Part shown: piece by piece, positions 10,222 through 59,175 of the stretch
Layout of the letters: every line of letters begins with the position of its first letter
Position numbering within the stretch: the first letter of the stretch is position 1
DNA from: Mustelus asterias
Taxonomy: Eukaryota
NCBI RefSeq assembly: GCF_964213995.1
Contig: NC_135811.1
Coordinates: forward strand, 110,298,001 to 110,362,000
DNA length: 64,000 bases
Direction: 5' to 3'
Notes under the pieces: generated by a model
What the model was told of the DNA's origin: nothing
What the model saw: the letters and a program-made list of their open reading frames with translations, nothing else
Database searches by the model: none
Translations under genes and position numbers: made by a program

Positions 10222-10562
10222 TGCCTGGTAACCCAGGTACCCCACTCACCCGGCGCCTGGTAACCCAGGTACCCCACTCACCCGGCGCCTGGTAACCCAG
10301 GTACCCCACTCACCCGGCGCCTGATAACCCAGGTACCCCACTCACCCGGCGCCTGGTAACCCAGGTACCCCACCCACCCGGCGCCTGGTAACCCAGGTAC
10401 CCCACCCACCCGGCGCCTGGTAACCCAGGTACCCCACCCACCTGGCGCCTGGTAACCCGGGTATCCCACCCACCTGGCGCCTGGTAACCCGGGTACCCCA
10501 CTCACCCGGCGCCTGGTAACCCGGGTACCCCACTCACCCGGCGCCTGGTAACCCGGGTATCC
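10222..10562. repeat. 32-bp minisatellite (GCCTGGTAACCCAGGTACCCCACTCACCCGGC)n
   Basis: About 10 tandem units. Confidence 0.95.
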
Positions 10563-11440: not shown

Positions 11441-12194
11441 CAACCATTGTCTGCCCTACCTGTGTCAGAGACTGTAGGTCACACATTGGACTCCTCAGTT
11501 ACCTGAGAACTCATTGTTAGTGTGGAAACAAATCACCCTCGACTCAGAGGGACTATCTCAGAGGGACTATCTCAGAGGGACTATCTCAGAGGGACTATCT
11601 CAGAGGGACTATCTCAGAGGAAGGAGTTATTTCTGTTTGAGTTCTCGGTTTATTTTGACTGCATTCAGATATGGAGCTTTTAGTTTTGGACTTTTTTTAT
11701 TTTTGTAACCTCTATTCTTGACCACTAAGAGTAAATCTTACATTTCTACATTCTGTCTCTTCCTGTCATGTTCCGTTTGTCATTTTCCATATTACTACCT
11801 TTCCCTCTCACCTTGCCTCAACTCTTTAATTTACCACATTTTCCCCAATTTGATCCCTTATCTTGACTGTGTGAAATGCTTTGAGACATTTGGCAATATG
11901 ACATTGTCCACAAGACACAAGTAATGGGATACTTTCCACTTGCCAGGTTGAGTGCTGCCATTAATGTCAAGCCATTGGATAATTGCAGAGATCTCTTTTT
12001 TCATTAATGTATTTGAGCAAAAATTAACTTGAGTTTGAATAAAGTCGAACCTCATCTGAAAGGCTGTAAAATCAATTTGACTTTTTAGTGGTTATTGACA
12101 GGTTAAGAGTTGACATTAACAAATGCCTTTGGAGCCAATACTATGTTACCTTATAAATAATCTTAATATGAAGGGAATATTTTGGGCATTGTAT

Positions 12195-13755: not shown

Positions 13756-14679
13756 ATATATCAATTTACTCCATCATTGGTGGCTGTACCTTCAGCTTCC
13801 TGCTCCTTAAGCTCTTGGATCCCCTCCTGAATTCTCTCTACCTCTCCACATCTCTCGCCCACTTTAAGATGCTCCTTAAAACCTGCCTCCTTGTCACCAA
13901 CTTAATATCTCCTAATATCCTTGCAAAATAATATCCCCTGGATGTCAGAGTTTATTTTATAAGGCCTCACGTAAGTTCCTGTTTCTTTGATGTTGTCGCA
14001 GTTCCGAGTGTATCTCAGGATTAAAGTCCATGTTATAGTTTCAGTCGGATCTGTGCCTCGGCATTGTAAAGCGAGTGAGTTGTTGCTGTGTTTAAACCCT
14101 GATAATATGAGCTGATGGTTCACCTCCTACACGTGGCTGCCTCTGGGGAAGATCTTATCAGTTCCAGTTATCAATTCAACCCAACAATAACTTGACATGG
14201 ATTTCAACAACTCTCTGCGATTACATGATAATGATTTGATAAAGTGAAGAGGCAGTCAGCTGTTCAGAAGCTGTTAATATCATTACACGGGATGGTCACA
14301 CACATTTCCTGCATTCACATATCTCAATCTAACTGGACTTACAGACAACAGATACAAAACAGAGTTGGGAAATAATACAGTTATAGATTTTTATAGATAA
14401 GAAAATTGTCACAAGCTGAATTATGTTGCTTCAAATAGAAAACCGAGCGTGTCTCAGCGCTGAACAACATTTCCCAGCTGAGGTTAATTGAACATTCACT
14501 GTCCTAATGTGATTGAAGATAATCTTGACGTGACACAGGCTCAACACATTTTGCACATTTCGCCTTTATTAAATTTGCTGCAAAAAGTCACTTCTCGATA
14601 ATATTTGTGTTTGGCAGAAACAGCAAATCTGTCTCCGAAACAAGCTGCTGAGGGGATTATAACCTGGAGTGCAATCACT

Positions 14680-17443
14680 GCACTCCCCCTGTACCGCGCT
14701 CCCCCTGTACCGCGCTCCCCCTGTACCGCGCTCCCCCTGTACCGCGCTCCCCCTGTACCGCGCTCCCCCTGTACCGCGCTCCCCATGTACCACGCTCCCC
14801 CTGTACCACGCTCCCCCTGTACCGCGCTCACGCCGTACCGCGTGCCCCCGTACCGCGTGCCCCCCGTACCGCGTGCCCCCCGTACCGCGCTCCCCCTGTA
14901 CCGCGCTCACGCCGTACCGCGTGCCCCCCGTACCGCGTGCCCCCCGTACTGCGCCCCCCCGTACCGCGCTCCCCCCGCACCGGGCTCCCCCCGTACCGCG
15001 CGCCACCCGTACCGCGCTCCCCCCATACCGCACTCCCCCCGCACCGCGCTCCCCCCGTACCACACACCCCCTGTACCGCGCTCCCCCTGCACCACGCTCC
15101 CCCTGTCACTGCGCTCCCCCCGCACCACACACCCCCTGTACCGCGCTCCCTTTGCACCGCGCTCCCCCTGCACCACGCTCCCCCTGCACCGCGCTCCCCC
15201 CGCACCACACACCCCCTGTACTGCGCTCCCTCTGCACCACGCTCCCCCTGCACCGCGCTCCCCCTGCACCGCGCTCCCTCTGCACTGCACTCCCCCTGCA
15301 CCGCGCTCCCCCTGCACCGTGCTCCCCCTGCACCGTGCTCCCCCTGCACCGTGCTCCCCCTGCACCGTGCTCCCCCTGCACCATGCACCCCCCGCACCAC
15401 TCTCCCCCTGCACCGCGCTCCCCCTGCCCCGCGCACCCCTTGCACCGCACTCCCCCTGCACCACTCTCCCCCTGCACCGCGCTCCCCCTGCCCCGTGCAC
15501 CCCTTGCACCGCGCTCCCCCTGCACCGCGCTCCCCCTGTAACCGCGCTCCCCCTGTCACCACGCTCCCCCTGTAACCGCGCTCCCCCTGTTACCGCGCTC
15601 CCCCGTACCGCGCTCCCCCCGTACCGCGCACCCCCGCACCGCCCTCCCCCTGCACCACGCTCCCCCCGTACCGCGCTCCCCCTGCACCGCGCTTCCCCTG
15701 CACCGCGCTCCCCCTGCACCGTGCACCCTCTGCACCGTGCTGCCTCTGCACCGCGCTGCCTCTGCACCGTGCACCCTCTGCACCGTGCACCCCCTGCACC
15801 GTGCTCCCCCTGCACCGCGCTCCCTCTGCACCGCACTCCCCCTGCACCGCGTTCCCCCTGCACCGTGCACCCCCTGCACCGCGCTGCCTCTGCACCGCGC
15901 TGCCTCTGCACCGCGCTGCCTCTGCACCGCCCTCCCCCTGCACCGCGTTCCCCCTGCACCGTGCACCCTCTGCACCGCGTTCCCCCTGCACCGTGCACCC
16001 TCTGCACCGTGCACCCTCTGCACCGTGCACCCCCTGCACCGCGCTCCCCCTGCACCATGCACCCCCTGTACACGTTCCCCCTGTTACCGCGCTCCCCCTG
16101 TTACCGCGCTCCCCCCATTACCGCGCTCCCCCTACACCGCGCTCCCCCTGTACCGCGCTCCCCCTGTACCGCGCACCCCTTGCACCGCGCTCCCCCTGTA
16201 CCGCGCACCCCTTGCACCGCGCTCCCCTTGCACCGCACTCTCCCTGTACCGCGCACCCCTTGCACCGCACTCTCCCTGTACCGCGCACCCCTTGCACCGC
16301 GCTCCCCCTGTACCGCGCACCCCTTGCACCGCGCTCCCCCTGTACGCATTCCCCTGTACCGCGCTTCCCCTGTACCACGCACCCCTTGCACCACGCTCTC
16401 CCTGAACTGCAGTCCCTGTACCGCACTCCCCCTGTACCGCACTCCCCCTGTACCGCACTCCCCCTGTACCGCACTCCCCCTGTACCGCACTCTCCCTGTA
16501 TCGCACTCCCCCTGTACCGCACTCCCCCTGTACCGCACTCTCCTTGTACCGCACTCTCCCTGTACCGCACTCTCCCTGTACCGCACTCCCCCCGTACCGC
16601 ACTCCCCCCGTACCGCACTCTCCTTGTACCGCACTCTCCCTGTACCGCACTCTCCCTGTACCGCACTCCCCCTGTACCGCACTCTCCCTGTACCGCACTC
16701 CCCCTGTACCGCACTCTCCCTGTACCGCACTCCCCCTGTACCGCACTCCCCCTGTACCGCACTCCCCCTGTACCGCACTCTCCCTGTACCGCACTCCCCC
16801 CGTACCGCACTCCCCCCGTACCGCACTCTCCTTGTACCGCACTCTCCCTGTACCGCACTCTCCCTGTACCGCACTCCCCCTGTACCGCACTCCCCCTGTA
16901 CCGCACTCCCCCTGTACCGCACTCTCCCTGTACCGCACTCCCCCTGTACCGCACTCCCCCTGTACCGCACTCCCCCTGTACCGCACTCTCCCTGTACCGC
17001 ACTCTCCCTGTACCGCACTCTCCCTGTACCGCACTCCCCCTGTACCGCACTCTCCCTGTACCGCACTCTCCCTGTACCGCACTCCCCCTGTACCGCACTC
17101 TCCCTGTACCGCACTCTCCCTGTACCGCACTCTCCCTGTACCGCACTCTCCCTGTACCGCACTCTCCCTGTACCGCACTCTCCCTGTACCGCACTCTCCC
17201 TGTACCGCACTCTCCCTGTACCGCACTCTCCCTGTACCGCACTCCCCCCGTACCGCACTCTCCCTGTACCGCACTCTCCCTGTACCGCACTCCCCCTGTA
17301 CCGCACTCTCCCTGTACCGCACTCCCCCTGTACCGCACTCTCCCTGTACCGCACTCCCCCTGTACCGCACTCTCCCTGTACCGCACTCCCCCTGTACCGC
17401 ACTCTCCCTGTACCGCACTCTCCCTGTACCGCACTCTCCCTGT
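14680..17443. repeat. 16-bp CpG/C-rich minisatellite (CTGTACCGCACTCCCC)n upstream of TCAP copy 1
   Basis: About 2.7 kb of tandem 16-bp units with a variant gradient. It generates the long spurious ORFs in all six frames. Confidence 0.95.
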
Positions 17444-17929
17444 CGCCCAGAATGGTGAGCCAGGATGGATAACCAGCCCTGTTTAACTGGTGTGTTCGTG
17501 CAGTTAATTAGTATAGATAACTAGGTGGTTAACTAGTTTTGATAACTTGGTGATTAACTAGTGTAGATAACCAGGTGGTTAACTAGTGTAGATAACCAGG
17601 GACTGGTTTAAAGCGGTTGGTAACAGCGGCTTTGGGCTGGGATTATTTTTACTCTGTGGGGGGTCCGGAATGGGAAACTTCCAAAACATCGAAACAGCTT
17701 CAGGGGCCGCAGACTAGATGGGCTGAATGGCCGCCTCCTGAACTGAATCAGACTCTGGTTCCAGTCTGAGGGCAGAGAACCGATCCCAATCACTCGGAAC
17801 AAGCTGCCCCGGTTCCCCAGGGGGGTGAGGCCATTCCCGGACTCATTCCCAGACTGTCACCGATCCCAGCTCCGGATTCATTGCGGATTCCGGGTGGTGA
17901 GAACATTCCCCGAAATAGCCCCGGGTGTG

Positions 17930-17935
17930 TATAAA
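17930..17935 (+). promoter_or_regulatory. TATA box of TCAP copy 1
   Basis: TATAAA 77 bp upstream of the ATG; identical in copy 2. Confidence 0.7.
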
Positions 17936-18006
17936 GGGGCGGCTGTCCCCGCACACACAGGCACTGGGAGAAGCTGGTGAACCCAGACAGGGAGACTGTC
18001 GCTGGG

Positions 18007-18125
18007 ATGGAACTGACACCCACTGCCACTCTCAGCTGCTTAGTGAATGAGGAGAACAGCCAGAGGAAGGAGCTTTACTCTGCACAGTGGCAGCAACTCA
18101 GCGTCAGGACACGGGCTCAGGAGCG
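18007..18125 (+). CDS. TCAP: Telethonin (titin-cap) copy 1, exon 1
   Basis: MELTPTATLSCLVNEENSQRKELYSAQWQQLSVRTRAQE-R matches the TCAP N-terminus (LSC.V.EEN..R.E...A.W..L...TR). 119 nt, donor CG|GTGAGT. Confidence 0.93.
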
Positions 18126-18237
18126 GTGAGTCTCCACCCAAACTGTGCCCGGTCCTCACTGGCTCACAGAGGGCCGCTCACTGGAGTATCGCCCAGGGTC
18201 AGCACTGAGAGAACAGCAAGTTACAGCCCAGTGACTG

Positions 18238-18770
18238 AGAGGGGAGAGAAAGAGATAGAGGGGGAGAGAGAGAGAGAGAGAGGGAGAAACAGACAGATGG
18301 AGGGGGAGAGAGAGACACAGTGGGAGAGATAGAGTGAGCGAAAGCGAGACAGAGGGAGATACAGAGAGACATATAGAGAGAGACAGAAAAAACAGAGACG
18401 CATAGAGAGAGACAAAAGGAGGGTCATAGAGTCAGAGAGAAATAGACATAAAGGAACAGGGAGAGAGACAGAGGGAGGGTCACACAGAGAGACAGAGAGA
18501 GACAGGGGGAGGGTCACACAGAGAGACAGAGAGAGACAGAGGGAGGGTCACACAGAGAGACAGAGGGGGGGTCACGCAGAGAGACAGAGGGGGGGGGTCA
18601 CACAGAGAGACAGAGGGGGGGTCACACAGAGAGACAGGGGGGGTCACACAGAGAGACAGAGGGAGGGTCACACAGAGAGACAGAGGGGGGGGTCACACAG
18701 AGAGACAGAGAGAGACAGAGGGGGGGTCACAGAGAGAGACAGAGAGAGAGAGGGGGGGGGGGGTCACGCA
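18238..18770. repeat. GA-rich micro/minisatellite in the TCAP copy 1 intron
   Basis: (GA)n and GGGTCACACAGAGAGACAGAG units. Confidence 0.9.
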
Positions 18771-18891
18771 GAGAGGCACAGCCAGGTTCAGACAGAGATT
18801 GTTTGAGAAAAGGCGTTGTTAATGAAGGGAATATGGATGAGGATCCGGCTAAATCTCCATCTGTTAATCTACATGTTTCTCCTTGTGGCAG

Positions 18892-19303
18892 ATGCTCTTT
18901 AAACGAGGTGGATGATGTCCGGAAGGAGAGTTACAACAGGAAATATCAGGTGACCTACCTGGTGCAGCGAAACCCCAACAATGTGATGAGGATGGGCCGC
19001 TTGGGAGAGGCACTGACTGAGTACCGCCTGCCATACCGCAAGCAGCTGCCACTGCCCATCTTCAGCCCCACTCACATCAGCAACAAGGTGGAAAGGGCAG
19101 TGACTCCCCCAGAGCTAAGTACAATCATTGAGCTGGAGCGAGCTCTGGGCTCGGGCGGCAGGTGTCAGGATAAGAGAGACATCTCCGAGATCACCAGAGA
19201 ACTTCCTCCAGTCATCCAGCCTGTCAGACTGGACAGCAAGAAAGCGGACATGGTGCAAAGATCCCTGTCCAGGTCCATGTCCCAGGAAGCTCAGAGAGGC
19301 TGA
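18892..19303 (+). CDS. TCAP: Telethonin copy 1, exon 2
   Basis: Acceptor TGGCAG|A; CSLNEVD...MRMGRLGEALTEYRLPY...LPLPIF...RSLSRSMSQEAQRG* with the diagnostic TCAP C-terminus. Joins exon 1 in frame (176 aa). AATAAA at 19832 and 19995. Confidence 0.95.
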
Positions 19304-20354
19304 GAGAGGCTGAGAGGCAGTGGGATAGGCTGTGCCTGGGTAGTATTTTGATGCAGTGTACAGTTTAGTCAGTGTGTGAAGATGCGACTTTAGAAGAATG
19401 AGAGGTGATTTCAATGAAACATATAAATTTCTTAAGGGACTTGTTGGAAAGTGTTCCCATTGGCTGGAGATTCTAGAACATGTGCTCAGTCTCGGGGGGC
19501 GGGGGGGGGGGGGTCCATTTCGGATTCCAGGTGGGAAGAATTTTCTTCAGTCGCAGTTTGGAATTTTCTCCACCACAGACCTGCGGCTGCTCCGCCATTG
19601 GATGTGTTCCAGAGGGTGATAGGTCCAAAGGGAATTGCGGGATAGTGGGATGATGTGGAAAGTGGAGATGGATGAGGTCAGTTGGAGTGGAGGAGGCTGT
19701 GTGTGTGTGTGAGGGGTGGAGGGAGAGTCTCTAATTTCTCATGCTCCAGTGTTTAGTGCACTCACTATTCCTGGACAGAGGCTGGCAGTGAGAAAGGTTC
19801 AGAAAGCTTTGATAGAGGATTGGGTAATAGAAATAAAGGTCAAGGAGCAGTGAACACTGGATGTGAGAAGGTCACGGAAGATGCTGAGGCAACACTTCTG
19901 TCTTATATCTCATATCTATATGTGTATCAGTGAGCTTTTGTCCCAGTGCGTTTATTTTAAAATATGAGTGTTTTGTACTGATTTTTGACATTGAAATAAA
20001 ACTGGATAGAACTCTGACTGATTTTCTGATGTTCACACAGTTCTCCATCACACACTCAGTTAGAAACTGGCATCATTAGTGTACCACAGGGCACATGCAA
20101 CGCTGGGGCTGGTATACTTTGTGTGGTACACCATGGTGCATCTTCCTCCAATGCCTCTGCACTCTTATCCAGCTGAGTGGAACTGTTATTGCCTGGTTCC
20201 ATTCTTATTTAATTGTAGCCAGAGAATCATGCAGAATGGCTTCTCTTCCTGTTCCTCTGGTGTCCCCCACACATCTATCTCCGCCCCTTCTCTTTCTAAC
20301 CCAAATGTTGCCTCTTGGCAACAACATCCAAGCACAATGTTAGATTCCACATGT

Positions 20355-21929: not shown

Positions 21930-24289
21930 CAGAGTGAATGACTGGATCTTTTTCTGAGGTGATTGTTTGCATAGTTGCTGCTGCCTAAATTCACAGGGAT
22001 TGTGAACAGAATGAGAGGCAAGAATAACGTTTGCTGATATTCCCACCCTGACTAAACATAGATTAGGCAGCTGTTGTTTACAGTCTGGGTAATGCATTGC
22101 GCTAACTGGTCAGTCAGCTCTCTGGAGAGATATCCTCCACCATCTCGCACTCAAAACAGTTCATTGAAATAGCCATTTAGCTATCATTAAAGGAGAATGA
22201 GATACTCTCACCCATAGGCCAAAGTTTTACGAGATTAATTCCGAGGGCCTGATTTTACCATCAAGTTGCACCTGTTTTTGGGTGTGAAAACTTGGTAAAG
22301 TCGGGCGTGAGGTGAGTAGCGCGGTCTGTGCCCGCCTCCGCGCCGGATCTGTGCCCGCCTCCGCACCGGATCTGTGCCCGCCTCTGCGCCGGAACTGTGC
22401 CCGCCTCCGCGCCGGATCCGTGCCCGCCTCTGCGCCGGATCTGTGCCCGCCTCTGCGCCGGATCTGTGCCCGCCTCCACGCCAGATCAGTGCCCGCCTCC
22501 GCGCCGGATCTGTGCCTGCCTCCGCACCGGATCTGTGCCCGCCTCCGCGCCGGTTCCCCCTTTACCAAGGCCCAAAATGGTCGCGGTCGGGACTGCGCCT
22601 GAAAAGGGCGCGATGGCCATTTAAATGCATTCGCATGCATTTAAATTGACTTAATGGGCTGCACGCCCGACCTTACCGGCACTTCCCCCTTTACCACCGC
22701 GTTCGCCCGTCCAGAATCGGCATGAAACAGACATGCTCCGTATTAGTCTGATTCGGGCGCTCCAGTTAGTGAGGGGGTAAGTGCCGAGTGTCCGACGGCT
22801 CTCTGCATGAGATCGGTGGGGGAGGGGGGGGGGAGGGAAGGGGGGGTTCACTGCCACTCTGCCTGAGATTGGTGGGGGGGAAGAGAGGGAGGAGCCCGTG
22901 TTCAGTCTGGGTAGCGGAAGGGGGAAGGGGGATAAGGGGATCAGTAATGTTGTGGGGGTGGGGCAATGCCTGTGGGGGTCAGGGGGAGGCGTTACCCGGC
23001 CCGGGGGGGATGTGGCAGGGGAACGTTATTCCATCTATTTTTTTTCTGCGCCTGCGCAGTTGGCGACGCCGATCGGAGCAGCAGGGTTACGAGCGCGTTA
23101 AGCGTCTCACACAGGCTTCTGCAGCGTGATTCAGAATTGCTGATATTTTTTCAGGCAGGGTGTGTATGGGAGCGCCTGAGAATGGGTTTAAAAGTCGGAT
23201 CTGAAACACTCCCAGTTTCAAGTCCACCCAGCACTCTGCAAGAGTGCATTCGCATGCATTTAAATTGACTTAATGAGCTGCACGCCCGACCTTACCGGCA
23301 CTTCCCCCTTTACCACCCCGTTCGCCCGTCCAGAATCAGCACGAAACAGACATGCTCCACAAAAGTCTGATTCGGGTGCAGGCATAGATCCGGTGCGGAG
23401 GCGGGCACAGATCCGGTGCGGAGGCGGGCACAGATCCGGTGCGGAGGCGGGCACAGTGCCGGTGCGGAGGCGGGCACAGATCCGCTGCGGAGGCAGGCAC
23501 AGTTCCGGTGCGGAGGCGGGCACAGTTCTGGTGCGGAGGCGGGCACAGATCCGGCGCGGAGGCGGGCACAGTTCCGGTGCGGAGGCGGGCACAGTTCTGG
23601 TGCGGAGGCGGGCACAGATCTGGCGCAGAGGCGGGCACAGATCCAGTGCGGAGGCGGGCACAGATCCGCTGCGGAGGCAGGCACAGTTCCGGTGCGGAGG
23701 CAGGCACAGATCCGGCGCGGAGGCGGGCACAGATCCGGTGCGGAGGCGGGCACAGATCCGGCGCGGAGGCGGGCACAGATCCGGCGCGGAGGCGGGCACA
23801 GATCCGGCGCAGAGGCGGGCACAGATCCGGCGCGGAGGCGGGCACAGATCCGGTGCGGAGGCAGGCACAGATCCGGCGCGGAGGCGGGCACAGACCGCGC
23901 TACTCACCTCACGCCCGACTTTACCAAGTTTTCACACCCGAAAACAGGTGCAACTTGATGGTAAAATCAGGCCCTCGGAATTAATCTCGTAAAACTTTGG
24001 CCTATGGGTGAGAGTATCTCATTCTCCTTTAATGATAGCTAAATGGCTATTTCAATGAACTGTTTTGAGTGCGAGATGGTGGAGGATATCTCTCCAGAGA
24101 GCTGACTGACCAGTTAGCGCAATGCATTACCCAGACTGTAAACAACAGCTGCCTAATCTATGTTTAGTCAGGGTGGGAATATCAGCAAACGTTATTCTTG
24201 CCTCTCATTCTGTTCACAATCCCTGTGAATTTAGGCAGCAGCAACTATGCAAACAATCACCTCAGAAAAAGATCCAGTCATTCACTCTG
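21930..24289. repeat. Large inverted repeat (arms ~21930-22555 and ~23650-24289) built around a MITE-like element with 23-bp internal tandem repeats
   Basis: Identical translations on opposite strands (21771..22097 - and 24122..24331 +). The 23-bp unit GGATCTGTGCCCGCCTCCGCGCC occurs in opposite orientation in the two arms. TIR-like GGGCCTGATTTTACC at 22245. Confidence 0.9.
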
Positions 24290-37225: not shown

Positions 37226-37889
37226 TCATAGAATCATAGAATCTACGGCACGGAGACAAGCCTTTCAGCCCAAACTGGTTCCTGCCGACCAAAATATCCA
37301 TCTAAACTAACCCCGTTATATTATTCTAAATTTATTACACTTTCTGTAATTTTCAATATTTTGTAAGGTATTTTAACAAATTTAATGAATAAAGTATTTT
37401 TTTAAAGATATAGACATACTGATGCTAACTTTCACTCAGATACAGCTTACCTGATATTACCTAATACTGAGGCACTAACTCTGCGGGAGATATTCCTCTG
37501 CTATCTGCGATTATCTGCTGCGCTGAAGCACCACATTATTGAAACACCAGAGGGCACCAGCGAGCCAGAGTTCACTCTATTGAATCATAGAATGGTTACA
37601 GCTCAGAATGAGGCCATTCGGCCCAGTGTATCTGTGTGGCTCTACAGAAACAACTAGGCTGGCCCCACTCCTCCTGTCCTTCCCGCATAGACCTATAATT
37701 TTAGCTGCTTCTCCATTTCCCCATTGAAAGTCAGGACTGTATCTGCTTGCACCTTATGCTCAGATGGTGAATTCCAGATCCTGACAGTTTGCTGCATAAT
37801 TTTCCTCACGTTGAACAAAGAACAAAGAACAGTACAGCACAGGAAACAGGCCCTTCGGCCCTCCAAGCCTGTGGCGCTCCTTGGTCCAA

Positions 37890-40828
37890 CTAGACCAATC
37901 GTTTGTATCCCTCCATTCCCAGGCTGCTCATGTGACTATCCAGGTAAGTCTTAAACGATGTCAGCGTGCCTGCCTCCACCACCCTACTTGGCAGCGCATT
38001 CCAGGCCCCCACCACCCTCTGTGTAAAAAACATCCCTCTAATATCTGAGTTATACTTCGCCCCTCTCACCTTGAGCCCGTGACCCCTCGTGAACGTCACT
38101 TCTGATCTGGGAAAAAGCTTCCCACCGTTAACCCTATCTATCCCCTTCATAATCTTGTACACCTCTTTTAGATCTCCTCTCATTCTCCGTCTTTCCAGGG
38201 AGAACAACCCCAGTTTACCCAATCTCTCCTCATAGCTAAGACCCTCCATACCAGGCAACATCCTGGTAAACCTTCTCTGCACTCTCTCTAACGCCTCCAC
38301 GTCCTTCTGGTAGTGCGGTGACCAGAACTGGACGCAGTACTCCAAATGTGGCCTAACCAGCGTTCTATACAGCTGCATCATCAGACTCCAGCTTTTATAC
38401 TCTATACCCCATCCTATAAAGGCAAGCATACCATATGCCTTCTTCACCACCTTCTCCACCTGTGTTGCCACCTTCAAGGATTTGTGGACTTGCACACCTA
38501 GGTCCCTCTGTGTTTCTATACTCCTGATGACTCTGCCATTTATTGTATAACTCCTCCCTACATTATTTCTTCCAAAATGCATCACTTCACATTTATTCGG
38601 ATTAAACTCCATCTGCCACCTCTCCGCCCAATTTTTCAGCCTATTTATATCCTGCTGTATTGCCCGACAATGCTCTTCGCTATCCGCAAGTCCAGCCATC
38701 TTCGTGTCATCCGCAAACTTGCTGATTACACCAGTTACACCTTCTTCCAAATCATTTATATATATCACAAATAGCAGAGGTCCCAGTACAGAGCCCTGCG
38801 GAACACCACTGGTCACAGACCTCCAGCCGGAAAAAGACCCTTCGACCACTACCCTCTGTCTCCTGTGGCCAAGCCAGTTCTCCACCCATCTAGCCACTTC
38901 TCCTTGTATCCCATGAGCCTTAACCTTCTTAACCAACCTGCCATGTGGGACTTTGTCAAGTGCCTTACTGAAATCCATATGGACAACATCCACGGCCCTT
39001 CCTTCGTCAACCGTTTTTGTCACTTCCTCAAAAAACTTCACCAAATTTGTAAGGCACGACCTCCCTCTTACAAAACCATGCTGTCTGTCACTAATGAGAT
39101 TGTTCCGTTCTAAATGCACATACATCCTGTCTCTAAGAATCCTCTCCAACAACTTCCCTACCACGGACGTCAAGCTCACCGACCTATAATTTCCTGGGTT
39201 ATCCCTGCTACCCTTCTGAAACAACGGGACCACATTCGCTATCCTCCAACCCTCAGGGACCTCACCCATGTCCAAAGAAGCGACAAAGATTTCCGTCAGA
39301 GGCCCAGCAATTTCATCTCTCATCTCCCTGAGCAGTTGAGGATAGATGCCATCAGGCCCTGGGGCTTTGTCAGTTTTAATGTTCCCTAAAAAACCTAACA
39401 CTTCCTCTCTTGTAATGGAGATTTTCTCTAACGGGTCAACACCTCCCTCCGAGACACTCCCGGTTAACACGCCCCTCTCCTTCGTGAATACCGATGCAAA
39501 GTATTCATTTAGGATCTCCCCTATTCCCTTGGGTTCTAAGCATAATTCCCCTCCTTTGTCCCTGAGAGGTCCGATTTTCTCCCTGACAACTCTTTTGTTT
39601 CTAACGTATGAATAGAATGCCTTAGGATTCTCCTTAATCCTGCCTGCCAAGAACATCTCGTGACCGCTTTTTGCTCTTCGAACTCCCCGTTTGAGTTCTT
39701 TCCTACTCTCTCTGTATTCTTCCAGAGCTCCATCTGTTTTCTGTTGCCTGGACTTAACGTACGCCTCCCTTTTCATTTTAATCAGATCCTCAATTTCCCT
39801 GGTTATCCACGGCTCTTGAATCCTACCTTTCCTATCTTTCCTTTTTACAGGCACATGCCTATCCTGCAGCCTTATCAATAGTTCCTTAAAAGACTCCCAC
39901 ATGCCAGACGCGGACTTACCCTCGAACATCCTCTCCCAATCAACATCCATCAATTCCTGCCTAATCCGGCTATAGTTAGCCTTCCCCCAATTTAGCACCC
40001 TGCCCGTAGGACAGCACTCATCCTTGTCCATTACTATCCTAAAGTTAACAGAGTGTGGTCACTATTTGCCACATGTTCCCCTACCGAAACTTTGACGACC
40101 TGACCGGGCTCATTTCCCAGAACTAGGTCCAGTATAGCCCCCTCTCTAGTCGGGCTATCTACATACTGTTCCAAAGAACCTTCCAGTATGCATTTTACAA
40201 ATTCCTCCCCGTCCGGACCCCCAGCTCTAAGCACTTTCCAGTCTGTGCCAGGGAAATTAAAGTCCCCCACTACAACAACCCTATTTTTTGTGCACCTATC
40301 CAGAATCTCCTGACATATCCTTTCCTCCACTTCCCGTGGGCTGTTGGGTGGTCTGTAGTACACCCCCAGCATAGTGACTGCACCCTTCCTGTTTCTGAGT
40401 TCCACCCACAGCGACTCAGTACATGACCCCTCTAAGTTGTCTACCCTCTGCACCGCGGTAATATGCTCCTTAACTAATATCGCTACTCCCCCACCTTTTT
40501 TAGCCCCTCCTCTGTCTCGCATAAAACACTTATACCCCAGAATATTCAGCTGCCAGTCCTGTCCTTTTAACCAAGTTTCCGTAACCGCAACCACATCCAA
40601 ATTCCGCACAAGCATTAAGGCCCTAAGTTCGTCTGTTTTACCCGTTACGCTCCCCGCATTGAAGCAGATGCACTCCAGACCTCCAGGCCCAGTCAGGTCA
40701 TCCTCCTCCAGAGTGCTCCTCTTCTTAGCTAGCCTTGCCCTGGCCCCCAGCTCGACCCCAGCCTCAGTATTTACTGACCTACTGTTTTGTTCCCCACCCC
40801 CCTGCCACTCTAGTTTAAATCCTGCCAA
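37890..40828 (-). pseudogene. CR1 ORF2 (APE endonuclease + reverse transcriptase) with one frameshift at ~40050
   Basis: 264-aa EN frame (VAVTETW, YYRPPN, VGDFN, LDLVL, SDH) then a 713-aa RT frame (QHGF, QGSVLGP, FADDTK). Confidence 0.9.
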
Positions 40829-41736
40829 AACACTCTAGCAAAACTCCCAGCCAGGATATTTGCTCCCTTCCAGTTAAGGTGTAACCCATCCTTTCTGTAC
40901 AGTTGCCATCCTGACTTGAAGATTTCCCAGTTATCTATGAATTTAAAACCCTCCCTCTTGCACCAGTCCTTTAGCCACGCGTTCAACTGTAGAATCTCCC
41001 TGTTCCGAGCTTCACTTGCACTAGACACCGGGAGCAGTCCAGAGATTGCTACACTGGAGGTCTTACTTTTTAGCCCAGCACCCAACTCCCTGAATTTCTC
41101 TCGTATGACCCCCCTGCTCTTCCTACCTACATCATTTTCACCAATGTGTATAATCACATCCGTTTGACTACCTTCCTTTTTAAATATGCTTCCTACCCTC
41201 TCGGAGACATCCAGTACCCCAGCACCAGGGAGGCAGACTACCATCCTGGATTCTCGTTCACTCCCACAGAACCGCCTGTCCGTGCCTCTAACCATTGCGT
41301 CCCCTACAACTATCGCTCTCCTAAACCCCTTCTTTCCCTTCCGGACCCCTGAGCCTGTCTCCGTAGAGGCGATCTGGTCCTCGTGGCTTACCCCTGGAGG
41401 GTCATCCCCCTCCACAGAATCCAAAACAATATACCTATTTTGGAGGGGGACAACCACAGGGGATCCCTCCACAGACTGCTCACTCCCTTCCCTTCTCCCA
41501 TCTGTTGCCCATCCCTTTCTTTTATGGGAGACTGCCACTGGGGTACTTTCTGGCACATCACCCTTCTGACTATTACCCCTCCTAACTGTGACCCACGTGT
41601 CTTCCTTCCGAGACCCTGGTGTCACTACCTGACTATAACTTTCATCTATTAATCTCTCATTTTCCCTAACTAAACTGAGTTCATCGAGCCTCAGCTCCAG
41701 CTCCCTCACACGATCCTTCAGGAGTTGCAGTTCCAC
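40810..41736 (-). CDS. CR1 ORF1 (coiled coil + SGNH esterase-like domain), N-terminus incomplete
   Basis: ELQLLKDRVRELELRLDEL coiled coil; IVVGDAMVRG, CLPGA, HIGEND and DGLHLN esterase motifs typical of CR1 ORF1. Confidence 0.85.
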   Translation of the reverse strand: MELQLLKDRVRELELRLDELSLVRENERLIDESYSQVVTPGSRKEDTWVTVRRGNSQKGDVPESTPVAVSHKRKGWATDGRREGSEQSVEGSPVVVPLQNRYIVLDSVEGDDPPGVSHEDQIASTETGSGVRKGKKGFRRAIVVGDAMVRGTDRRFCGSERESRMVVCLPGAGVLDVSERVGSIFKKEGSQTDVIIHIGENDVGRKSRGVIREKFRELGAGLKSKTSSVAISGLLPVSSASEARNREILQLNAWLKDWCKREGFKFIDNWEIFKSGWQLYRKDGLHLNWKGANILAGSFARVFWQDLN

Positions 41737-41809
41737 ACATCTGGCACAGATATGGACTTCCGGGAGGACTTTTATATTTTTGCCATTTTTTGCATTATTC
41801 TTGAAAACA

Positions 41810-42376
41810 NNNNNNNNNNNNNNNNNNNNNNNNNNNNNNNNNNNNNNNNNNNNNNNNNNNNNNNNNNNNNNNNNNNNNNNNNNNNNNNNNNNNNNNNNNN
41901 NNNNNNNNNNNNNNNNNNNNNNNNNNNNNNNNNNNNNNNNNNNNNNNNNNNNNNNNNNNNNNNNNNNNNNNNNNNNNNNNNNNNNNNNNNNNNNNNNNNN
42001 NNNNNNNNNNNNNNNNNNNNNNNNNNNNNNNNNNNNNNNNNNNNNNNNNNNNNNTGTGGGAGTGTGNNNNNNNNNNNNNNNNNNNNNNNNNNNNNNNNNN
42101 NNNNNNNNNNNNNNNNNNNNNNNNNNNNNNNNNNNNNNNNNNNNNNNNNNNNNNNNNNNNNNNNNNNNNNNNNNNNNNNNNNNNNNNNNNNNNNNNNNNN
42201 NNNNNNTGTNNNNNNNNNNNNNNNNNNNNNNNNNNNNNNNNNNNNNNNNNNNNNNNNNNNNNNNNNNNNNNNNNNNNNNNNNNNNNNNNNNNNNNNNNNN
42301 NNNNNNNNNNNNNNNNNNNNNNNNNNNNNNNNNNNNNNNNNNNNNNNNNNNNNNNNNNNNNNNNNNNNNNNNNNNN
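41810..42376. other. Assembly gap / N-masked region
   Basis: Run of N with a few called TG-rich bases. Confidence 1.
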
Positions 42377-44225: not shown

Positions 44226-44873
44226 CTTTCTATGAATGTGGCCCTGTCTCCTGTAACCCTCTCCCAGCCCATCGACACTCACGCCTCACCCTCCCTATAC
44301 AACTCTCATCCCTCCCCCTCCTTCCCGCCCCCCTTCCTCCCTCCCCACCACCCCCCCGCCCCCCCACACACACTCTCTGTTATGTTATTGGCGATTGCGA
44401 TTCCTATTGTTGTCTCCAGAATGTTCACTTTTCTTGCTTTTATAACCTAAACCCCACAGTAGGGAGCGAGTTTACAGCCGTCGCTTTGCATTCTTGGCTT
44501 CAGGTTAATTCTTTTTCGAATGAAGCGTTTTTGGATATTTTTCCATTTGTTGCCAGCGAGTCTCTGAGGAAATTATGAAACTGTCTCAAAGCAGCAAGTT
44601 CCTCAGTCATTCTTTATTAAAAATAAAATGAAACTTTCCAGTGAATAATTACAAAAATAAGTCAGGAAACATCTACTTAAATACAATCTTTTTGCTTTAG
44701 TGCCCGAAGTACATTTCACATAATCGCTAAACTTCCAGTTACATTTCACAATTTCTTCCACTTGCTGTCCTGCCTCTCACTCCATCATCATCCGACCCAC
44801 AAAATCTCCCCCCGCGAAACATTCCTCAACACAGTCAGCCTTTGCACTCAGTCCCGCCGCCTCTCAGCCTCTC

Positions 44874-45285
44874 TCAGCCTCTCTGAGCTTCCTGGGACAT
44901 GGACCTGGACAGGGATCTTTGCACCATGTCCGCTTTCTTGCTGTCCAGTCTGACAGGCTGGATGACTGGAGGAAGTTCTCTGGTGATCTCGGAGATGTCT
45001 CTCTTATCCTGACACCTGCCGCCCGAGCCCAGAGCTCGCTCCAGCTCAATGATTGTACTTAGCTCTGGGGGAGTCACTGCCCTTTCCACCTTGTTGCTGA
45101 TGTGAGTGGGGCTGAAGATGGGCAGTGGCAGCTGCTTGCGGTATGGCAGGCGGTACTCAGTCAGTGCCTCTCCCAAGCGGCCCATCCTCATCACATTGTT
45201 GGGGTTTCGCTGCACCAGGTAGGTCACCTGATATTTCCTGTTGTAACTCTCCTTCCGGACATCATCCACCTCGTTTAAAGAGCAT
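44874..45285 (-). CDS. TCAP: Telethonin copy 2, exon 2
   Basis: Reverse complement of 18892-19303 with an identical translation; own AATAAA at 44618-44613. Confidence 0.95.
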
Positions 45286-45407
45286 CTGCCACAAGGAGAA
45301 ACATGTAGATTAACAGATGGAGATTTAGCCGGATCCTCATCCATATTCCCTTCATTAACAACGCCTTTTCTCAAACAATCTCTGTCTGAACCTGGCTGTG
45401 CCTCTCT

Positions 45408-45915
45408 GTCTCTCTGTGTGACCCCCCCTCTGTCTCTCTCTCTGTCTCGGTCTGTGACTCTCTGTATGACCCTCCCTCTGTCTCTCTCTCTCTCTCTGTC
45501 TGTGACTCTCTGTGTGACCCACCCTCTGTTTGTCTCTCTGTATTTCTCTCTCTCGCTCTCCCTGTTCCTTTATATCTATTTGTCTCTCGGTCTTTCTGTA
45601 TCTCTCTCTGTCGCTGATTCTCTCACTGGCTTTCTCTCTCTCTCTTCCTCTGTCTCTGTGCGCGTCTGTTTTCTCTCACTCTCGAATTATCTCTCTCTGT
45701 CTCTCTGTTGATCTCACTTTATTCTCTCTGTGTGTGTCTCTCTGTGTGTGTCTCTCTTTGTCTCTCTCTCTGTCACTATTTTCTCTCTGACTCCTCTCCC
45801 CCCCCCCCACCCCCCGCGTCTCTGTCTCCTTATTTCTCTATATATATATTTCTATGTCTCTTTGTATCTTTCTCTCTATCCCCCCTGTCTGTGTTCCCCC
45901 TCCCCCTCTGTGCCT
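45408..45915. repeat. CT-rich microsatellite in the TCAP copy 2 intron
   Basis: (CT)n/(CTGT) tract of similar composition to, but different sequence from, 18238-18770. Confidence 0.9.
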
Positions 45916-46027
45916 CAGTCACTGGGCTGTAACTTGCTGTTCTCTCAGTGCTGACCCTGGGCGATACTCCAGTGAGCGGCCCTCTGTGAGCCAGTGAGGA
46001 CTGGGCACAGTTTGGGTGGAGACTCAC

Positions 46028-46146
46028 CGCTCCTGAGCCCGTGTCCTGACGCTGAGTTGCTGCCACTGTGCAGAGTAAAGCTCCTTCCTCTGGCTGTTCT
46101 CCTCATTCACTAAGCAGCTGAGAGTGGCAGTGGGTGTCAGTTCCAT
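46028..46146 (-). CDS. TCAP: Telethonin copy 2, exon 1
   Basis: ATG at 46146, 119 nt, donor GTGAGT; identical to 18007-18125. Confidence 0.93.
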
Positions 46147-46217
46147 CCCAGCGACAGTCTCCCTGTTTGGGTTCACCAGCTTCTCCCAGTGCCTGTGTGT
46201 GCGGGGACAGCCGCCCC

Positions 46218-46223
46218 TTTATA
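46218..46223 (-). promoter_or_regulatory. TATA box of TCAP copy 2
   Basis: TATAAA at the same distance from the ATG as in copy 1. Confidence 0.7.
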
Positions 46224-46499
46224 CACACCCGGGGCTATTTCGGGGAATGTTCTCAGTGTCTAAATTCACTCGAACAACTCACCGCAGAATTGTTGACTCG
46301 CTCCCAGTGATTTCCAGATATCAGCACCTAAAGTTCAAGCTTCACAGCTGTCTGTGTGACTGCCCAGAGCAGGGATAATGTTCCTAATCGGATTAATGAG
46401 CAGTCCTGCTTCACATTGACCAGAATCAGGCTCTGAGCAACAAAGGAGCCGATTGAACGACTGGAACAATCCCCAAAGTCAGGGCGAAGATCAAAGGAC

Positions 46500-47165
46500 A
46501 TCACCCCAACCCTCCCTCCCCAACAAACACACCCACCCACCCCCTCCCCCACCTACCCCCATCCCCTACCCACCCACCCCCCACCCACATCCCCACACCC
46601 TCCCCCACCCACCCCCCACCCACACACCCATCCCCTACCCACCCTCCCCCACCCACCCCCCACCCACATCCCCACACCGTCCCCCACCCACCCCCACCCA
46701 CACCTCCACACCCTCCCACCCCCACCCAACCCCCACCCACACCCCCCACACCACCCGCCCCCTCCCCCACCCACCGCCATCCCCTACCCACCCACCCCCG
46801 ACCGACACCCTCACACCGTCCCCCACCCACACTCACCCCCACCCACACCTCCACACACCACGGACGCCCAACCCCCACCCACACCTCCACACACCACCCA
46901 CCCACCCCCCACCCCCAACTCACCCCCCAACCAAAACCCCACCCATCCCCCTCACATCCCCTCCCTCCCCTACAAAACCCTCTCTCTCCCCACCCCACAC
47001 CCACCCCTACACACTCCCACACCCCCCCCTACACACACAACCACCCTCTCCCACATCCTCTCCCCATCCCCCACCCCTTCCCCCACACCCCACCCATATC
47101 CCTCCCCACACCCCACACCTCTGCACACCCCACCAAAACCACACTCCCCTACTCACACCCCACCC
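46500..47165. repeat. C/A-rich low-complexity tract
   Basis: (CCCA)-rich; G-rich on the minus strand. Confidence 0.9.
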
Positions 47166-47204
47166 AGAGACATGAGCATCTCTCCCAGGCTGACACCCGA
47201 AGTG

Positions 47205-48307
47205 CAGTACTGAGGGAGTACCGCACTGTCAGAGCGTCAGTACTGAGGGAGTGCCGCACTGTCAGAGCGTCAGTACTGAGGGAGTGCCGCACTGTCAGAG
47301 GGTCAGTACTGAGGGAGTGCTGCACTGTCAGAGCGTCAGTACTGAGGGAGTGCCGCACTGTCAGCGGGTCAGTACTGAGGGAGTGCTGCACTGTCAGAGG
47401 GTCAGTACTGAGGGAGCGCTGCACTGTCAGAGGGTCAGTACTGAAGGAGTGCCGCACTGTCAGAGGGTCAGTACTGAGGGAGTGCCGCACTGTCAGAGGG
47501 TCAGTACTGAGGGAGTGCCGCACTGTCAGAGGGTCAGTACTGAGGGAGTGCCGCACTGACAGAGGGTCAGTGCTGAGGGAGTGCCGCACTGTCAGAGGGT
47601 CAGTGCTGAGGGAGTGCCGCACTGTCAGAGGGTCAGTACTGAGAGTGTGCCGCACTGTCAGAGGGTCAGTACTGAGGGAGTGCCGCACTGTCAGAGGGTC
47701 AGTGCTGAGGGAGTGCTGCACTGCCAGAGGGTCAGTACTGAGGGAGTGCCGCACTGTCAGAGGGTCAGTGCTGAGGGAGTGCCGCACTGTCAGAGGGTCA
47801 GTGCTGAGAGAGTGCCGCACTGTCAGAGGGTCAGTACTGAGAGAGTGCCGCACTGTCAGAGGGTCAGTACTGAGGGAGTGCCGCACTGTCAGAGGGTCAG
47901 TACTGAGGGAGTGCCGCACTGTCAGAGGGTCAGTGCTGAGGGAGTGCTGCACTGTCAAAGGGTCAGTGCTGAGGGAGTGCTGCACTGTCAGAGGGTCAGT
48001 GCTGAGGGAGTGCTGCACTGTCAGAGGGTCAGTGCTGAGGGAGTGCCGCACTGTCAGAGGGTCAGTACTGAGGGAGTGCCGCACTGTCAGAGGGTCAGTA
48101 CTGAGGGAGTGCCGCACTGTCAGAGGGTCAGTGCTGAGGGAGCGCCGCACTGTCAGAGGGTCAGTACTGAGGGAGTGCCGCACTGTCAGAGGGTCAGTAC
48201 TGAGGGAGTGCCGCACTGTCAGAGGGTCAGTACTGAGGGAGTGCCGCACTGTCAGAGGGTCAGTACTGAGGGAGTGCGGCACTGTCAGAGGGTCAGTACT
48301 GAGGGAG
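47205..48307. repeat. 33-bp minisatellite (GTACTGAGGGAGTGCCGCACTGTCAGAGGGTCA)n expanded inside a Deu-domain SINE
   Basis: About 33 units, preceded by CCAGAGACATGAGCA..CAGGCTGACAC..GTGCAG (SacSINE1/AmnSINE1-like); SINE tail relic at ~48570-48660. Confidence 0.9.
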
Positions 48308-48709
48308 CAGAACCTGCCAGAGGTGCACAGGTGAGTTCAGCCCCCGGGGGGTGAGGGCTATGCCTGGCAATACCCTGGCACAGCTCTTGCAGGTGGTTGG
48401 GGAGGATTGGGTGGGGGGTCGGGGGGTGGGGGCGCCTTTTTTAAAAGCCTCAGTTCCTGGCCACCAGCGCAAGTCGCGAGGACCCACCCCCCCCCCCCCC
48501 CCAACAGTTCTTGTCAACGAGGTTAAAAATACAGCGGGAAGCTGCCGCTTGGATTCTCACCAGATAAACACTGCCCAACATTTCAACAAGTACTTTACTG
48601 GCTGGAAAATGCTCTGGGACATCCCGTGGCTGTGAAAGGAGTGATAGAAATTCAAGTTATTTACTTTACTGAGAGACGGGGTGTGGGATCGTGTGAGTCA
48701 CAAACACAA

Positions 48710-56419: not shown

Positions 56420-59175
56420 GAGTCATAGAGATTTACAACATGGAAACAGGCCCTTCAGCCCAACTTGTCCATGCCACAAGTTTTTACCACTAAGCTAGTC
56501 CCAATTGTCCACATTTGGCCCATATCCCTCTATACCTATCTTACCCATGTCATAGAGTCATAGAGGTTGACAGCATGGGAACAGGCCCTTCAGCCCAACT
56601 TGTCCATGCCGCCCTTTTTTTAAAACCCTGAAGTTAGTCCCAATGGCCCGCATTTGGCCCATGTCCCTCTATACCCATCTTACCCATGTAACTGTCTAAA
56701 TGCTTTTTAAAAGACAAAATTGTACCTGCCTCTACTACTACCTCTGGCAGCTCATTCCAGACACTCACCACCCTCTGTGTGAAACAATTGCCCCTCTGGA
56801 TCTTTTTATATCCCTCCCCTCTCACCTTAGACCTACGTCCTCTAGTTTTAGACACCCCTTCCTTTGTATTCAATTGGCTATCTTACCCTGGATCTGTGAG
56901 ATTTAACCTTATGCAACAACCTACCATGCGGTACCTTGTCAAAGGACTTGCTAAAGTCCATGCAGTCAACGTCGACTGCACTGCCCTCATCTACCTTCTT
57001 GGTTACCCCTTCAAAAACTCAATCAAATTTGTGAGACATGATTTTCCACTCACAAAGCTATGCTGACTGTCCTTAATCAGTCCTTGCGTCTCTAAATGCC
57101 TGTAGACCCTATTTCTCAGAATACTTTCTAACAACTCACCCACTACAGATGTTTGGCTCACCGGTCTGTAATTCCCAGCTTTTCCCTGCAGCCCTTCTTA
57201 AACAAAGGCACAACATTTGCTATCTTCCGATCTTCAGGCACCTCACCTGTGGCTGTCGATAATTCAAATATCTCTGCCAGGGGATCCGCAATTTCCTCCC
57301 TCGCCTCCCGCAACGCCCTGGGTACACGTCATCAAGTCCCGGGGATTTGTCTACATTGATGCACTTTAAGACTTCCAGCACCTCCTTCTCTGTAATATGT
57401 ACACTCCTCAAGACATTACTATTTATTTCCCCAAATTCCCTAACATCCATGCTTTTCTCAACAGTAAGTACTGATGAGAATTATTCATTTAGGATCTCAC
57501 TCTTAGGGGTGGCACGGTGGCACAGGGGCAGCACAGTAGCACAGAGGTTAGTACTGCTGCCTCACAGCACCAGGGGCCCAGCTTGGGTCACTGTCTGTGT
57601 GGAGTTTGCACATTCTCCCAGTGTCTGCATGAGTTTCCTTCTGGTGCTCCAGTTTCCTCCCACAGTCCAAAGATGTACGGGTTAGGTGGATTGACCATGA
57701 TAAATTGTCCCTTAGTGTCAGGGGGTCTAGCTAGGGTAAATGAATGTGGTTACGGGGATAGGGTTCGGGTGGGATTGTGGTTGGTGCAGACTCGGTGGGC
57801 CGAATGGCCTCCTTCTGCACTGTAGGATTCTATGAAGATGGTCTGAAATCTCTTGTGGATCCGCATGTAGATGACCTTGTTGATCCTTAAGAGGCCTTAT
57901 TCTCTCCCTAGTTACTCTTTTGTCATTTATGTATCTGTAGAAGCTCTTTGGATTCTCCTTTGCCTCATTCATATTGAATGAGAAATTCCTCCTGAATACA
58001 CTCAACAAATTTCTCTCCATCCAAGCCTATGTTGGATACTATGGCTGTCTTTGGTTATTTTATAACCCTCGGATATATCCCCTCTCAGTACTGCCGTGAT
58101 GTTCTCCCTTATCAAAATCACAACTCACCCTCGTCTCTTACCTCCTGTTCTGTCTTTCCTACAGCATCTGTACCCTGGAACATTGAGCTGCCAGTCCTGT
58201 CCCTCCCTAAGTCATGTTTCAGTAATAGCTATAATATCCCTGTCCCATGTACCCATCCATGCCCTGAGTTCATCTGTCTTGCCCGTCAGGCCTCTTGCAT
58301 TTAAATAAATGCAGTTTAATCTAGACTTCCCTTGCTCTCTGCCCTGACCATCTGTCCTGCCATGTTTTGTACACTCTCCCTGTGTTTTATTTCTCAGCCT
58401 CATTGGACCCATTCACTGAGTTCTCCACAGTCTCTGTACTCTGTGGCCCTTTTTGATTTTTGTCTTTGGTTTCTCTGCCTTTATTTCCCCTTACTGCCTT
58501 TGGTTTCTGTCCCCACTTTATTTCCCTCTGACTTCCTGCATCGGTTCCCATCCCCCTGCCACATCAGTTTAAACCCTCCCCAACAGCACTAGCGAACACT
58601 CCCCCTTGGACATTTGTTCCAGTCCTGCCCAGGTGCAGACCGTCCGATTTGTACTGGTCCCACCTCCCCCTGAACCGGTTCCAATGTCCCAGGAATTTGA
58701 ATCCCTCCCTCTTGCACCATCTCTCAAGCCACGTGTTCATCTTAGTTATCCTGACATTCCTACTCTGATGAGCACGTGGCACTAGCAGTAATCCTGAGGT
58801 TACTACCTTTGAGGTCCTACTTTTTAGTTTAACTTCTAACTCCCTAAATTCAGCTTGTAAGACCTCATCCTATTTTTTACCTATATCACTGGTGCCTATA
58901 TGTACCACGACAGCTGGCTGTTCACCCTCTCCCTCCAGAATGCTCTGCAGCCACTCCGAGACATCTTTAACCCTTGCACCAGAGAGGCAACATACCATCT
59001 TGGAGTTTTGTTTGCATCCGCAGAATGCCTGTCTATTCCCCTTACAATTGAGTCCACTATCACTATAGCTTTGCCACTCTTTCCTCCTGCCCAGCAGAGC
59101 CAGCCACGGTGCCATCAACCTGGCTGCTGTCACCTTCCTCTGGTGAGCCATCTCCCCCAACAGTATCCAAAATGG
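56420..59175 (-). mobile_element. Internally deleted CR1 (ORF1 end, EN, RT pieces, duplicated 3' end) with a SINE inserted at 57507-57832
   Basis: ORF1 esterase pieces (CLSGARVKDVS, DGLHLG..GEGLN*), EN start (CIYLNARGL..AITET), RT pieces and 3' UTR. Confidence 0.85.

Follow-up and report, generated by a model that had tools for sequence, protein, structure and literature searches.

The translation of the second open reading frame (ORF2) of long interspersed nuclear elements (LINEs) is known mainly from L1 and SART1, both of the reinitiation type (papers are cited here by PMC number, and each for excerpts of its text). A -1 frameshift is said to be needed for ORF2 of the Dictyostelium elements TRE5-A and TRE3-A in the figure legend of a review (PMC5911963) whose excerpts give neither a slippery sequence nor an experimental test; the word 'frameshift' is absent from the excerpts of a further review (PMC5633606). 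HeT-A and TART are the only elements without long terminal repeats (non-LTR elements) mentioned in the excerpts of the review PMC5009743. CR1 has been described as dominating the retrotransposons of most vertebrates (PMC13343379), and its members with a type IV ORF1 (subgroup 7 of PMC4120745) share an esterase ORF1, and an ORF2 with APE endonuclease and reverse transcriptase, with the element studied here, which lies on the minus strand of a 64-kb stretch of Mustelus asterias DNA (hereafter the window). The ORF1/ORF2 junction of this CR1 is probably a programmed -1 ribosomal frameshift signal giving an ORF1-ORF2 fusion, as a first, sequence-only reading of the window had proposed and as comparative evidence, the only kind gathered here, now supports.

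Frameshifting at the CR1 junction is not discussed in the excerpts of PMC13343379, PMC4120745, PMC3905857, PMC11303007, PMC2734521, PMC4255032 and PMC3708506. The word 'frameshift' is absent from those of PMC13343379, PMC11303007, PMC4120745, PMC3905857 and PMC3708506, and in those of PMC4255032 and PMC2734521 frame shifts appear only as mutations. More widely, we found no report of frameshifting for CR1 in the excerpted open-access literature; an older remark, for example in CR1 papers of 1997, by Kapitonov and Jurka (2003) or in Repbase, is possible. Our reading is based on the phase of a slippery heptamer, an open -1 frame, conservation at the nucleotide level, covariation inferred from proteins, the lack of an AUG ahead of endonuclease motif I in three families, and a G-rich element at fixed spacing. 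Judged from these comparisons, the junction is real and deeply conserved and bears the signature of a -1 frameshift site, with a canonical stimulator lacking.

The ORF1/ORF2 junction of the window element

The element spans ~41805 to 37813 on the minus strand, its 5' end lying inside an N gap (41810-42376) that hides the start of ORF1. We assign it to the CR1 LINEs with an esterase ORF1 from its place in the esterase tree and from its likeness, judged by eye, to CR1-labelled shark consensus junctions. ORF1 matches the SGNH/GDSL esterase family of Pfam (PF13472, E 4e-9), and our ORF1 profile A1 matches the ORF1 esterase of PDB 4C1B (E 1e-45). Most of its named homologs come from sharks and rays, others from coelacanth, frogs and turtle. 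ORF2 carries Exo_endo_phos (PF03372, the APE endonuclease) and RVT_1 (PF00078, the reverse transcriptase); a frame break near 40040-40058 makes this copy defective. The parts of the element and the related features are as follows, positions downstream of the heptamer being counted from +1, the first base of the ORF1 stop.

40810..41805, minus strand: visible part of CR1 ORF1, with a cysteine-bearing N-terminal part and a C-terminal SGNH/GDSL esterase, ending ...VFWQDLN and stop
40813..40819, minus strand: slippery heptamer U_UUA_AAC, phased on the Leu and Asn codons that close ORF1
40810..40812, minus strand: ORF1 stop UAG, abutting the 3' end of the heptamer; relatives have UAA or UGA
40792..40805, minus strand: G element, a candidate stimulator 7 nt past the heptamer, with G at +8, GGGGG at +11 to +15 and another G run at +18 to +21
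40667..40819, minus strand: -1 frame linker of 51 codons without AUG or stop, reaching from the heptamer to motif I of the endonuclease
40034..40666, minus strand: APE endonuclease domain of ORF2, with motif I CFNAGS at 40666, the first AUG at 40615 and VTETW at 40585
37890..40058, minus strand: reverse transcriptase part of ORF2, in a different frame in the window copy after the break near 40040-40058
37813..37889, minus strand: 3' untranslated region, terminating in short GTTCTTT repeats
40817..40846, minus strand: predicted 13-bp hairpin immediately 5' of the heptamer and overlapping it; probably incidental
58552..58573, minus strand: the corresponding signal in another, divergent CR1 family, with heptamer at 58573-58567, UGA, an overlapping in-frame AUG at 58564-58562 and a G run

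The 3' end of ORF1 reads GAT TTA AAC TAG on the minus strand, where TTTAAAC (40819-40813) has the X_XXY_YYZ phase and TAG lies at 40812-40810. The -1 frame continues as FKLEWQGGGEQ... and stays open for 261 aa; in the other direction a stop closes it 5 codons before the heptamer (SVLAG). Motif I (CFNAGS, from 40666) has its Asn at codon 54, and the first in-frame ATG, at 40615, is codon 69. The phase of the heptamer, the open ORF2 in the -1 frame and the position of the first ATG past motif I, all claimed in the sequence-only reading, thus stand. No UAAUG or UGAUG, nor any AUG adjoining the stop, is found at 40812 or in two other families (L021 and L028) described below. The apparent TTG start of ORF2 noted in the same reading had to be dropped: in the contigs from 4 of 24 runs on which copy-level variant statistics are based, another letter is carried at 40827 by 150613/150851 (X1) and 56727/58009 (X11) of the contig depth in the two deepest runs, so that the codon at 40828-40826 is TCG at most of this depth and TTG is the minority form. 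Among 40 of the 91 variant places none falls within 40810-40819, while 40808, 40809 and 40820 are variable, a weak result as 51 places were not covered.

TTTAAAC alone is frequent in the window, with 17 sites over the two strands. The extended motif TTTAAACTRRNNNNGNNGGGGG has two matches, each at a CR1 ORF1 end (40819 and 58573), compared with 0.00 in 100 shuffles; having been built from these same junctions, it yields a count that speaks to specificity and not to independence. The second of these copies, with 47.5% ORF1 amino acid identity to the first, has its TTTAAAC at 58573; a TGA comes next, overlapped by an in-frame ATG, and the G run is likewise present.

Two further observations concern CR1 sequences of the window. 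ORF1 of the window family contains, at 41380-41560 (minus strand), an extra segment of ~25 residues with a repeated 'S-P-V-A/V-V' motif, absent from most relatives and present in homolog P0001, which suggests an internal duplication. A third CR1 endonuclease copy, at 902-21 (minus strand), apparently starts at a junction-like G run, with no heptamer or ORF1 upstream, and has two motif-I-like stretches in the same frame, YSNARS near 764 and CLNARS near 647.

Conservation of the junction in other hosts and in ORF1 proteins

The ORF1 protein patterns used to search other hosts lay outside the junction, and loci were found without using the heptamer. TTTAAAC was present in 23/24 of the junctions recovered (8/8 from metagenomes, 15/16 from assemblies), and synonymous variants of the CTG AAT type, which the sequence-only reading had held to speak against frameshifting when it proposed such an alignment, are absent from all 24. 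The metagenome search gave 20 loci, of which 11 end before the junction and one (L010) has neither an endonuclease match nor the motif; in the remaining 8, which we take to be of a bird CR1 type ('bird-type' below), TAG follows the heptamer in 7/8. L011 and L007 have an intact -1-frame ORF2 of 953 and 1006 aa. In L007, in L017 and in the window copy at 58573, ORF1 is frame-broken upstream and the heptamer was placed by a string search near the ORF1 end.

Prokaryote assemblies yielded 18 loci to a second ORF1 alignment, built from a clade that lies apart from the vertebrate esterases; the junction is included in 16 of them (14 from a single family, 2 from another), L031 ends early and L038 is an unrelated bacterial-type match. 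These junctions read TTTAAAC TAG in 15/16 and TTTAAAG TAG in one. In 11/16 the -1 frame is unbroken from the heptamer through CLNARS, the first Met falling at codon 49-59 and the Asn of motif I at codon 40-45, and one locus (L021) has an intact ORF2 of 962 aa. Three further loci of the 14-member family also carry TTTAAAC, and an unrelated esterase locus (L064) does not. The CR1 loci in prokaryote assemblies (L021-L037, in G001-G003) are evidently contamination by host DNA. One of these assemblies, G001 (17.8 Mb), contains 23 CR1 profile matches, and a shark-like ORF1 (P0013) is labelled Pseudomonas. Scans of prokaryote genome contigs with profile A2 and of viral contigs with profiles A1 and A3 gave no matches, and a scan of 400 genomes from the order of G001 gave no new carrier.

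Protein sequence and codon usage do not account for this conservation. Given a terminal xLN, the codon usage of the same elements predicts the TTTAAAC codon triple with a probability of 0.002-0.14, and TTTAAAC is found at 0/34 of the other xLN sites in eight ORF2s, two of which are near-copies. Many copies have a stop in the -1 frame 1-6 codons before the heptamer, so that the FK of this frame is not explained by overlapping ORF2 coding. The length of the linker differs among elements (motif I Asn at codon 40, 45, 54 or 91), yet ORF2 stays in the -1 frame.

The range of hosts is extended by the supplement of PMC13343379, where we judged by eye 19 of 44 heptamer matches to be CR1 or Crack ORF1/ORF2 junctions; this search covered the first 400 letters of each cell and, being heptamer-based and hence biased, gives a range and not a frequency. 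The hosts, with species read from abbreviations, are alligator, crocodile, bowfin, bullfrog, elephant shark, rays, catshark, dogfish, coelacanth, bearded dragon and a halosaur fish. A stop follows the heptamer in 18/19 of these consensus junctions (11 TAG, 6 TAA, 1 TGA). In the same supplement, the SquAca_CR1-18 and CR1-3 consensus sequences have TTTAAACTA and then a G-containing stretch also upstream of ORF1. No junctions were found in the supplement files of PMC4316615, one file being left out.

At the protein level, 166 of the 217 ORF1 homologs have a complete C-terminus, which is LN in 113, GN in 11 and KN in 2. The last tripeptide is able to encode an X_XXY_YYZ heptamer in 126/166, against 3-37/166 for 11 upstream tripeptides (47/78 against 1-13/78 after dereplication). 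The residue before the terminal LN is of 14 kinds, and E, Q, K, M or W, which have no codon ending in T, occupies this place in 1/113 as against 45/113 one place earlier. The 11 GN ends are preceded by Q (9), S (1) or A (1), and both KN ends by S. The heptamers inferred from these ends would be U_UUA_AAC for xLN, G_GGA_AAC for QGN and A_AAA_AAC for SKN, all three among the most shift-prone (PMC5009743). In an esterase tree of 68 chosen rows, calculated with the tails removed, the GN and KN ends and one LN end fall in one clade (support 98/94). The families of L021 and L028 lie outside the vertebrate clade, and in this respect, by tree position alone, they differ from the statement that within CR1/L2 the esterase ORF1 is confined to vertebrates (PMC4120745). 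Related esterases of the ZfL2-1 type end without LN, GN or KN, so the esterase fold does not need LN.

Some ORF1 ends depart from this pattern. In a clade of five homologs (P0184, P0189, P0192, P0202 and P0205) ORF1 extends 11-13 codons beyond a conserved [TSRA]-K-N at the junction position, possibly an A_AAA_AAC without an adjacent stop, and the ends of P0201 and P0208 could encode G_GGU_UUU or U_UUU_UUA. Three proteins that read into FKL... (P0074, a single gene model from a search for long fused proteins, P0025 and P0060) are probably frame-broken copies and were not counted as natural fusions.

Start codons, downstream RNA and alternative explanations

Three families, that of the window element and two others, have no AUG before motif I, whose Asn is essential in L1 (N14A) and Zorro3 (N17A) (PMC1965478). 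In the L021 family the first 10 codons of ORF2 contain neither an AUG nor any tested near-cognate codon, and the first Met is codon 59. Codon 5 varies between TGG, TCG, GGG, GTG and ATG.

Downstream of the stop, G at +8 and at +11 to +15 is invariant in 11/11 representatives, picked among copies with an intact motif, and -8 and +4 to +7 are variable; +8, +11 and +14 each fall on the third base of an ORF2 codon. The full G..GGGGG motif stands at the fixed spacer of 7 nt in 21/25 of the junctions long enough to be scored; in the L021 family there is one run only, G6. This spacer lies within the usual 5-8 nt between heptamer and stimulator (PMC3919603) and speaks for frameshifting. G-quadruplexes stimulate frameshifting on UUUAAAC (PMC3919603), and the G element is within the top 0.1-2% of G4Hunter windows in 7/7 elements. 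The sequence-only reading had pointed to a G-rich tract and to a possible downstream fold: the sequence and spacing of the tract are conserved across the compared junctions, and a pseudoknot or G-quadruplex is not. A role of the upstream hairpin (40817..40846) as a conserved attenuator was rejected as other families do not have it, and long-range pairing of the G run was rejected for want of a consistent partner.

Several observations weigh against the frameshift reading. On the side of RNA structure, the nested downstream fold was not better than shuffles in 12 junctions (z -1.5 to +1.4, no dedicated pseudoknot predictor being run), a search for long-range partners of the G run in 7 elements gave none that was shared (an upstream duplex in L028 beat shuffles at an unshared site), and a G-quadruplex is the minimum-energy fold in 2/7 elements only, the window copy and L007. 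On the side of sampling, 14/16 assembly loci are a single family from a single assembly, and the ORF1 searches were seeded with LN-ending sequences, favouring LN ends. The evidence for GN and KN is from proteins only, as no DNA of their clade appeared in three scans (viral contigs, the 400 genomes, and a G_GGA_AAC motif scan whose 30 loci include no esterase ORF1). Among 30 dereplicated homologs not ending in LN, GN or KN, a slippery-encodable tripeptide stands near the end in 13, versus 4-9 in control windows. As for start codons, an in-frame AUG, to which the sequence-only reading would have given weight against its own proposal, precedes motif I in all 5 bird-type elements compared (in 4 as codon 5) and overlaps the stop in some shark families; it is absent from two other families. 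TGATG is found at 58566-58562, TAATG in 3/19 consensus junctions (two of them apparently without a G run at the usual place), and a GTG overlapping the stop is given by the majority letter in the window family. Finally, L1 tolerates the loss of the ORF2 AUG and caliciviral reinitiation tolerates start-codon changes; absence of an AUG alone therefore proves little.

These start codons speak for termination-reinitiation of the SART1/L1 type, in which ribosomes would terminate on ORF1, resume in the -1 frame on an AUG or near-cognate codon that overlaps the stop or lies close by, and make a separate ORF2 protein, the heptamer and G run serving as a pausing or retention signal. SART1 uses UAAUG and L1 reinitiates (PMC3708506, PMC2881922, PMC5972666), and a stop-start overlap likewise sets ORF2 in the -1 frame. 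However, reinitiation predicts neither an X_XXY_YYZ heptamer nor the covariation of ORF1 ends, offers no start for the L021 family, and is joined by no downstream RNA structure and by the caliciviral UGGGA motif, sought 30-100 nt upstream, in 5/26 junctions only. The AUG at codon 5, present in 4/8 bird-type junctions, is one of several NNG codons at this place and may be a by-product of the conserved G at +8. We consider reinitiation, the main rival, an unlikely explanation. A combination of both routes, with frameshifting ancestral and a free ORF2 protein made also or mainly by reinitiation in those lineages (bird-type and some sharks) whose AUG lies at the stop or close to it, would suit the patchy distribution of the AUG by lineage and the presence of the heptamer in every lineage seen. 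Yet heptamer and G run are kept equally in AUG-bearing bird-type copies and AUG-less ones, and L005, L009 and L004 have no AUG at codon 5, which makes this combination more improbable still. A constraint unrelated to translation or acting on the protein might be sought in a need for Leu-Asn after the last esterase helix, in a binding site on DNA or RNA, or in a splice acceptor, CTAG followed by G resembling a 3' splice site. This we regard as very improbable, since TTA AAC and the preceding T are fixed against the codon-usage expectation given above, LN alternates with GN and KN, and L2-type esterases do without it; the splice acceptor was rejected because the stop varies between TAG, TAA and TGA and the AG is not conserved.

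Under programmed frameshifting, most ribosomes would read ...UUA AAC, halt at the adjoining stop and yield the ORF1 protein. A minority would slip by -1 on U_UUA_AAC, with tRNA-Leu and tRNA-Asn re-pairing, and would cross a low-complexity linker of 35-90 codons into the endonuclease and reverse transcriptase. This would yield, at low frequency, an ORF1-linker-endonuclease-reverse transcriptase fusion resembling retroviral Gag-Pol; such low efficiency would presumably suffice. The adjoining stop and the G element may act as stimulators, the latter, which is conserved as sequence, probably by its sequence, for example when bound by a protein or at the mRNA entry channel. A broader proposal is that CR1s with an esterase ORF1, from sharks to birds and including relatives outside the vertebrate clade, make ORF2 mainly as such a fusion, with a signal kept throughout the group, switching between U_UUA_AAC, G_GGA_AAC and A_AAA_AAC and driven by the stop and a short G run instead of folded RNA. 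We offer it tentatively, as an idea whose chances fall a little short of even.

Other features of the window and comparison with described systems

Outside the CR1 copies, the window contains two inverted copies of the coding region of TCAP (telethonin; PF09470, E 4e-53), at 17898-19325 (plus strand) and ~44852-46255 (minus strand). They are 94-99% identical and ~26 kb apart, and reflect either a local duplication or an assembly artefact. Long low-complexity tandem arrays with spurious ORFs on both strands occupy 10488-11520, 14569-17520, 23260-23992 and 47149-48354.

If the frameshift reading of the CR1 junction is true, a major clade of LINEs relies on the solution known from retroviruses, with an ORF2 that has no true start, and in the catalytic protein the esterase and coiled coil of ORF1 are present in cis. 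In AUG-less families, ORF2 annotations and CR1 expression constructs begun at the first AUG would then be wrong. The signal would be short (~25 nt), and a stop with a G run at the ribosome entry channel would represent a structure-free kind of -1 stimulator.

Among described systems, Dictyostelium TRE5-A and TRE3-A are, like CR1, APE-type non-LTR elements with overlapping ORFs, and differ in clade and in ORF1. SART1, through UAAUG coupling, and mammalian L1, through reinitiation, share with CR1 a bicistronic RNA in which ORF2 depends on translation of ORF1, and some CR1 families have UAAUG or UGAUG; however, SART1 and L1 make a separate ORF2 protein, whereas in CR1 the heptamer is conserved and the AUG is not. 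Retroviral gag-pro-pol and coronavirus ORF1a/1b signals belong to elements other than non-LTR ones, and the CR1 junction, unlike theirs, shows no pseudoknot or stem-loop at spacer distance in the folds calculated here. Some retroviruses have a stop directly after the heptamer. With both of these signals CR1 shares a shift-prone X_XXY_YYZ heptamer, the succession of a structural ORF and an enzyme ORF in the -1 frame, and an element 7 nt downstream.

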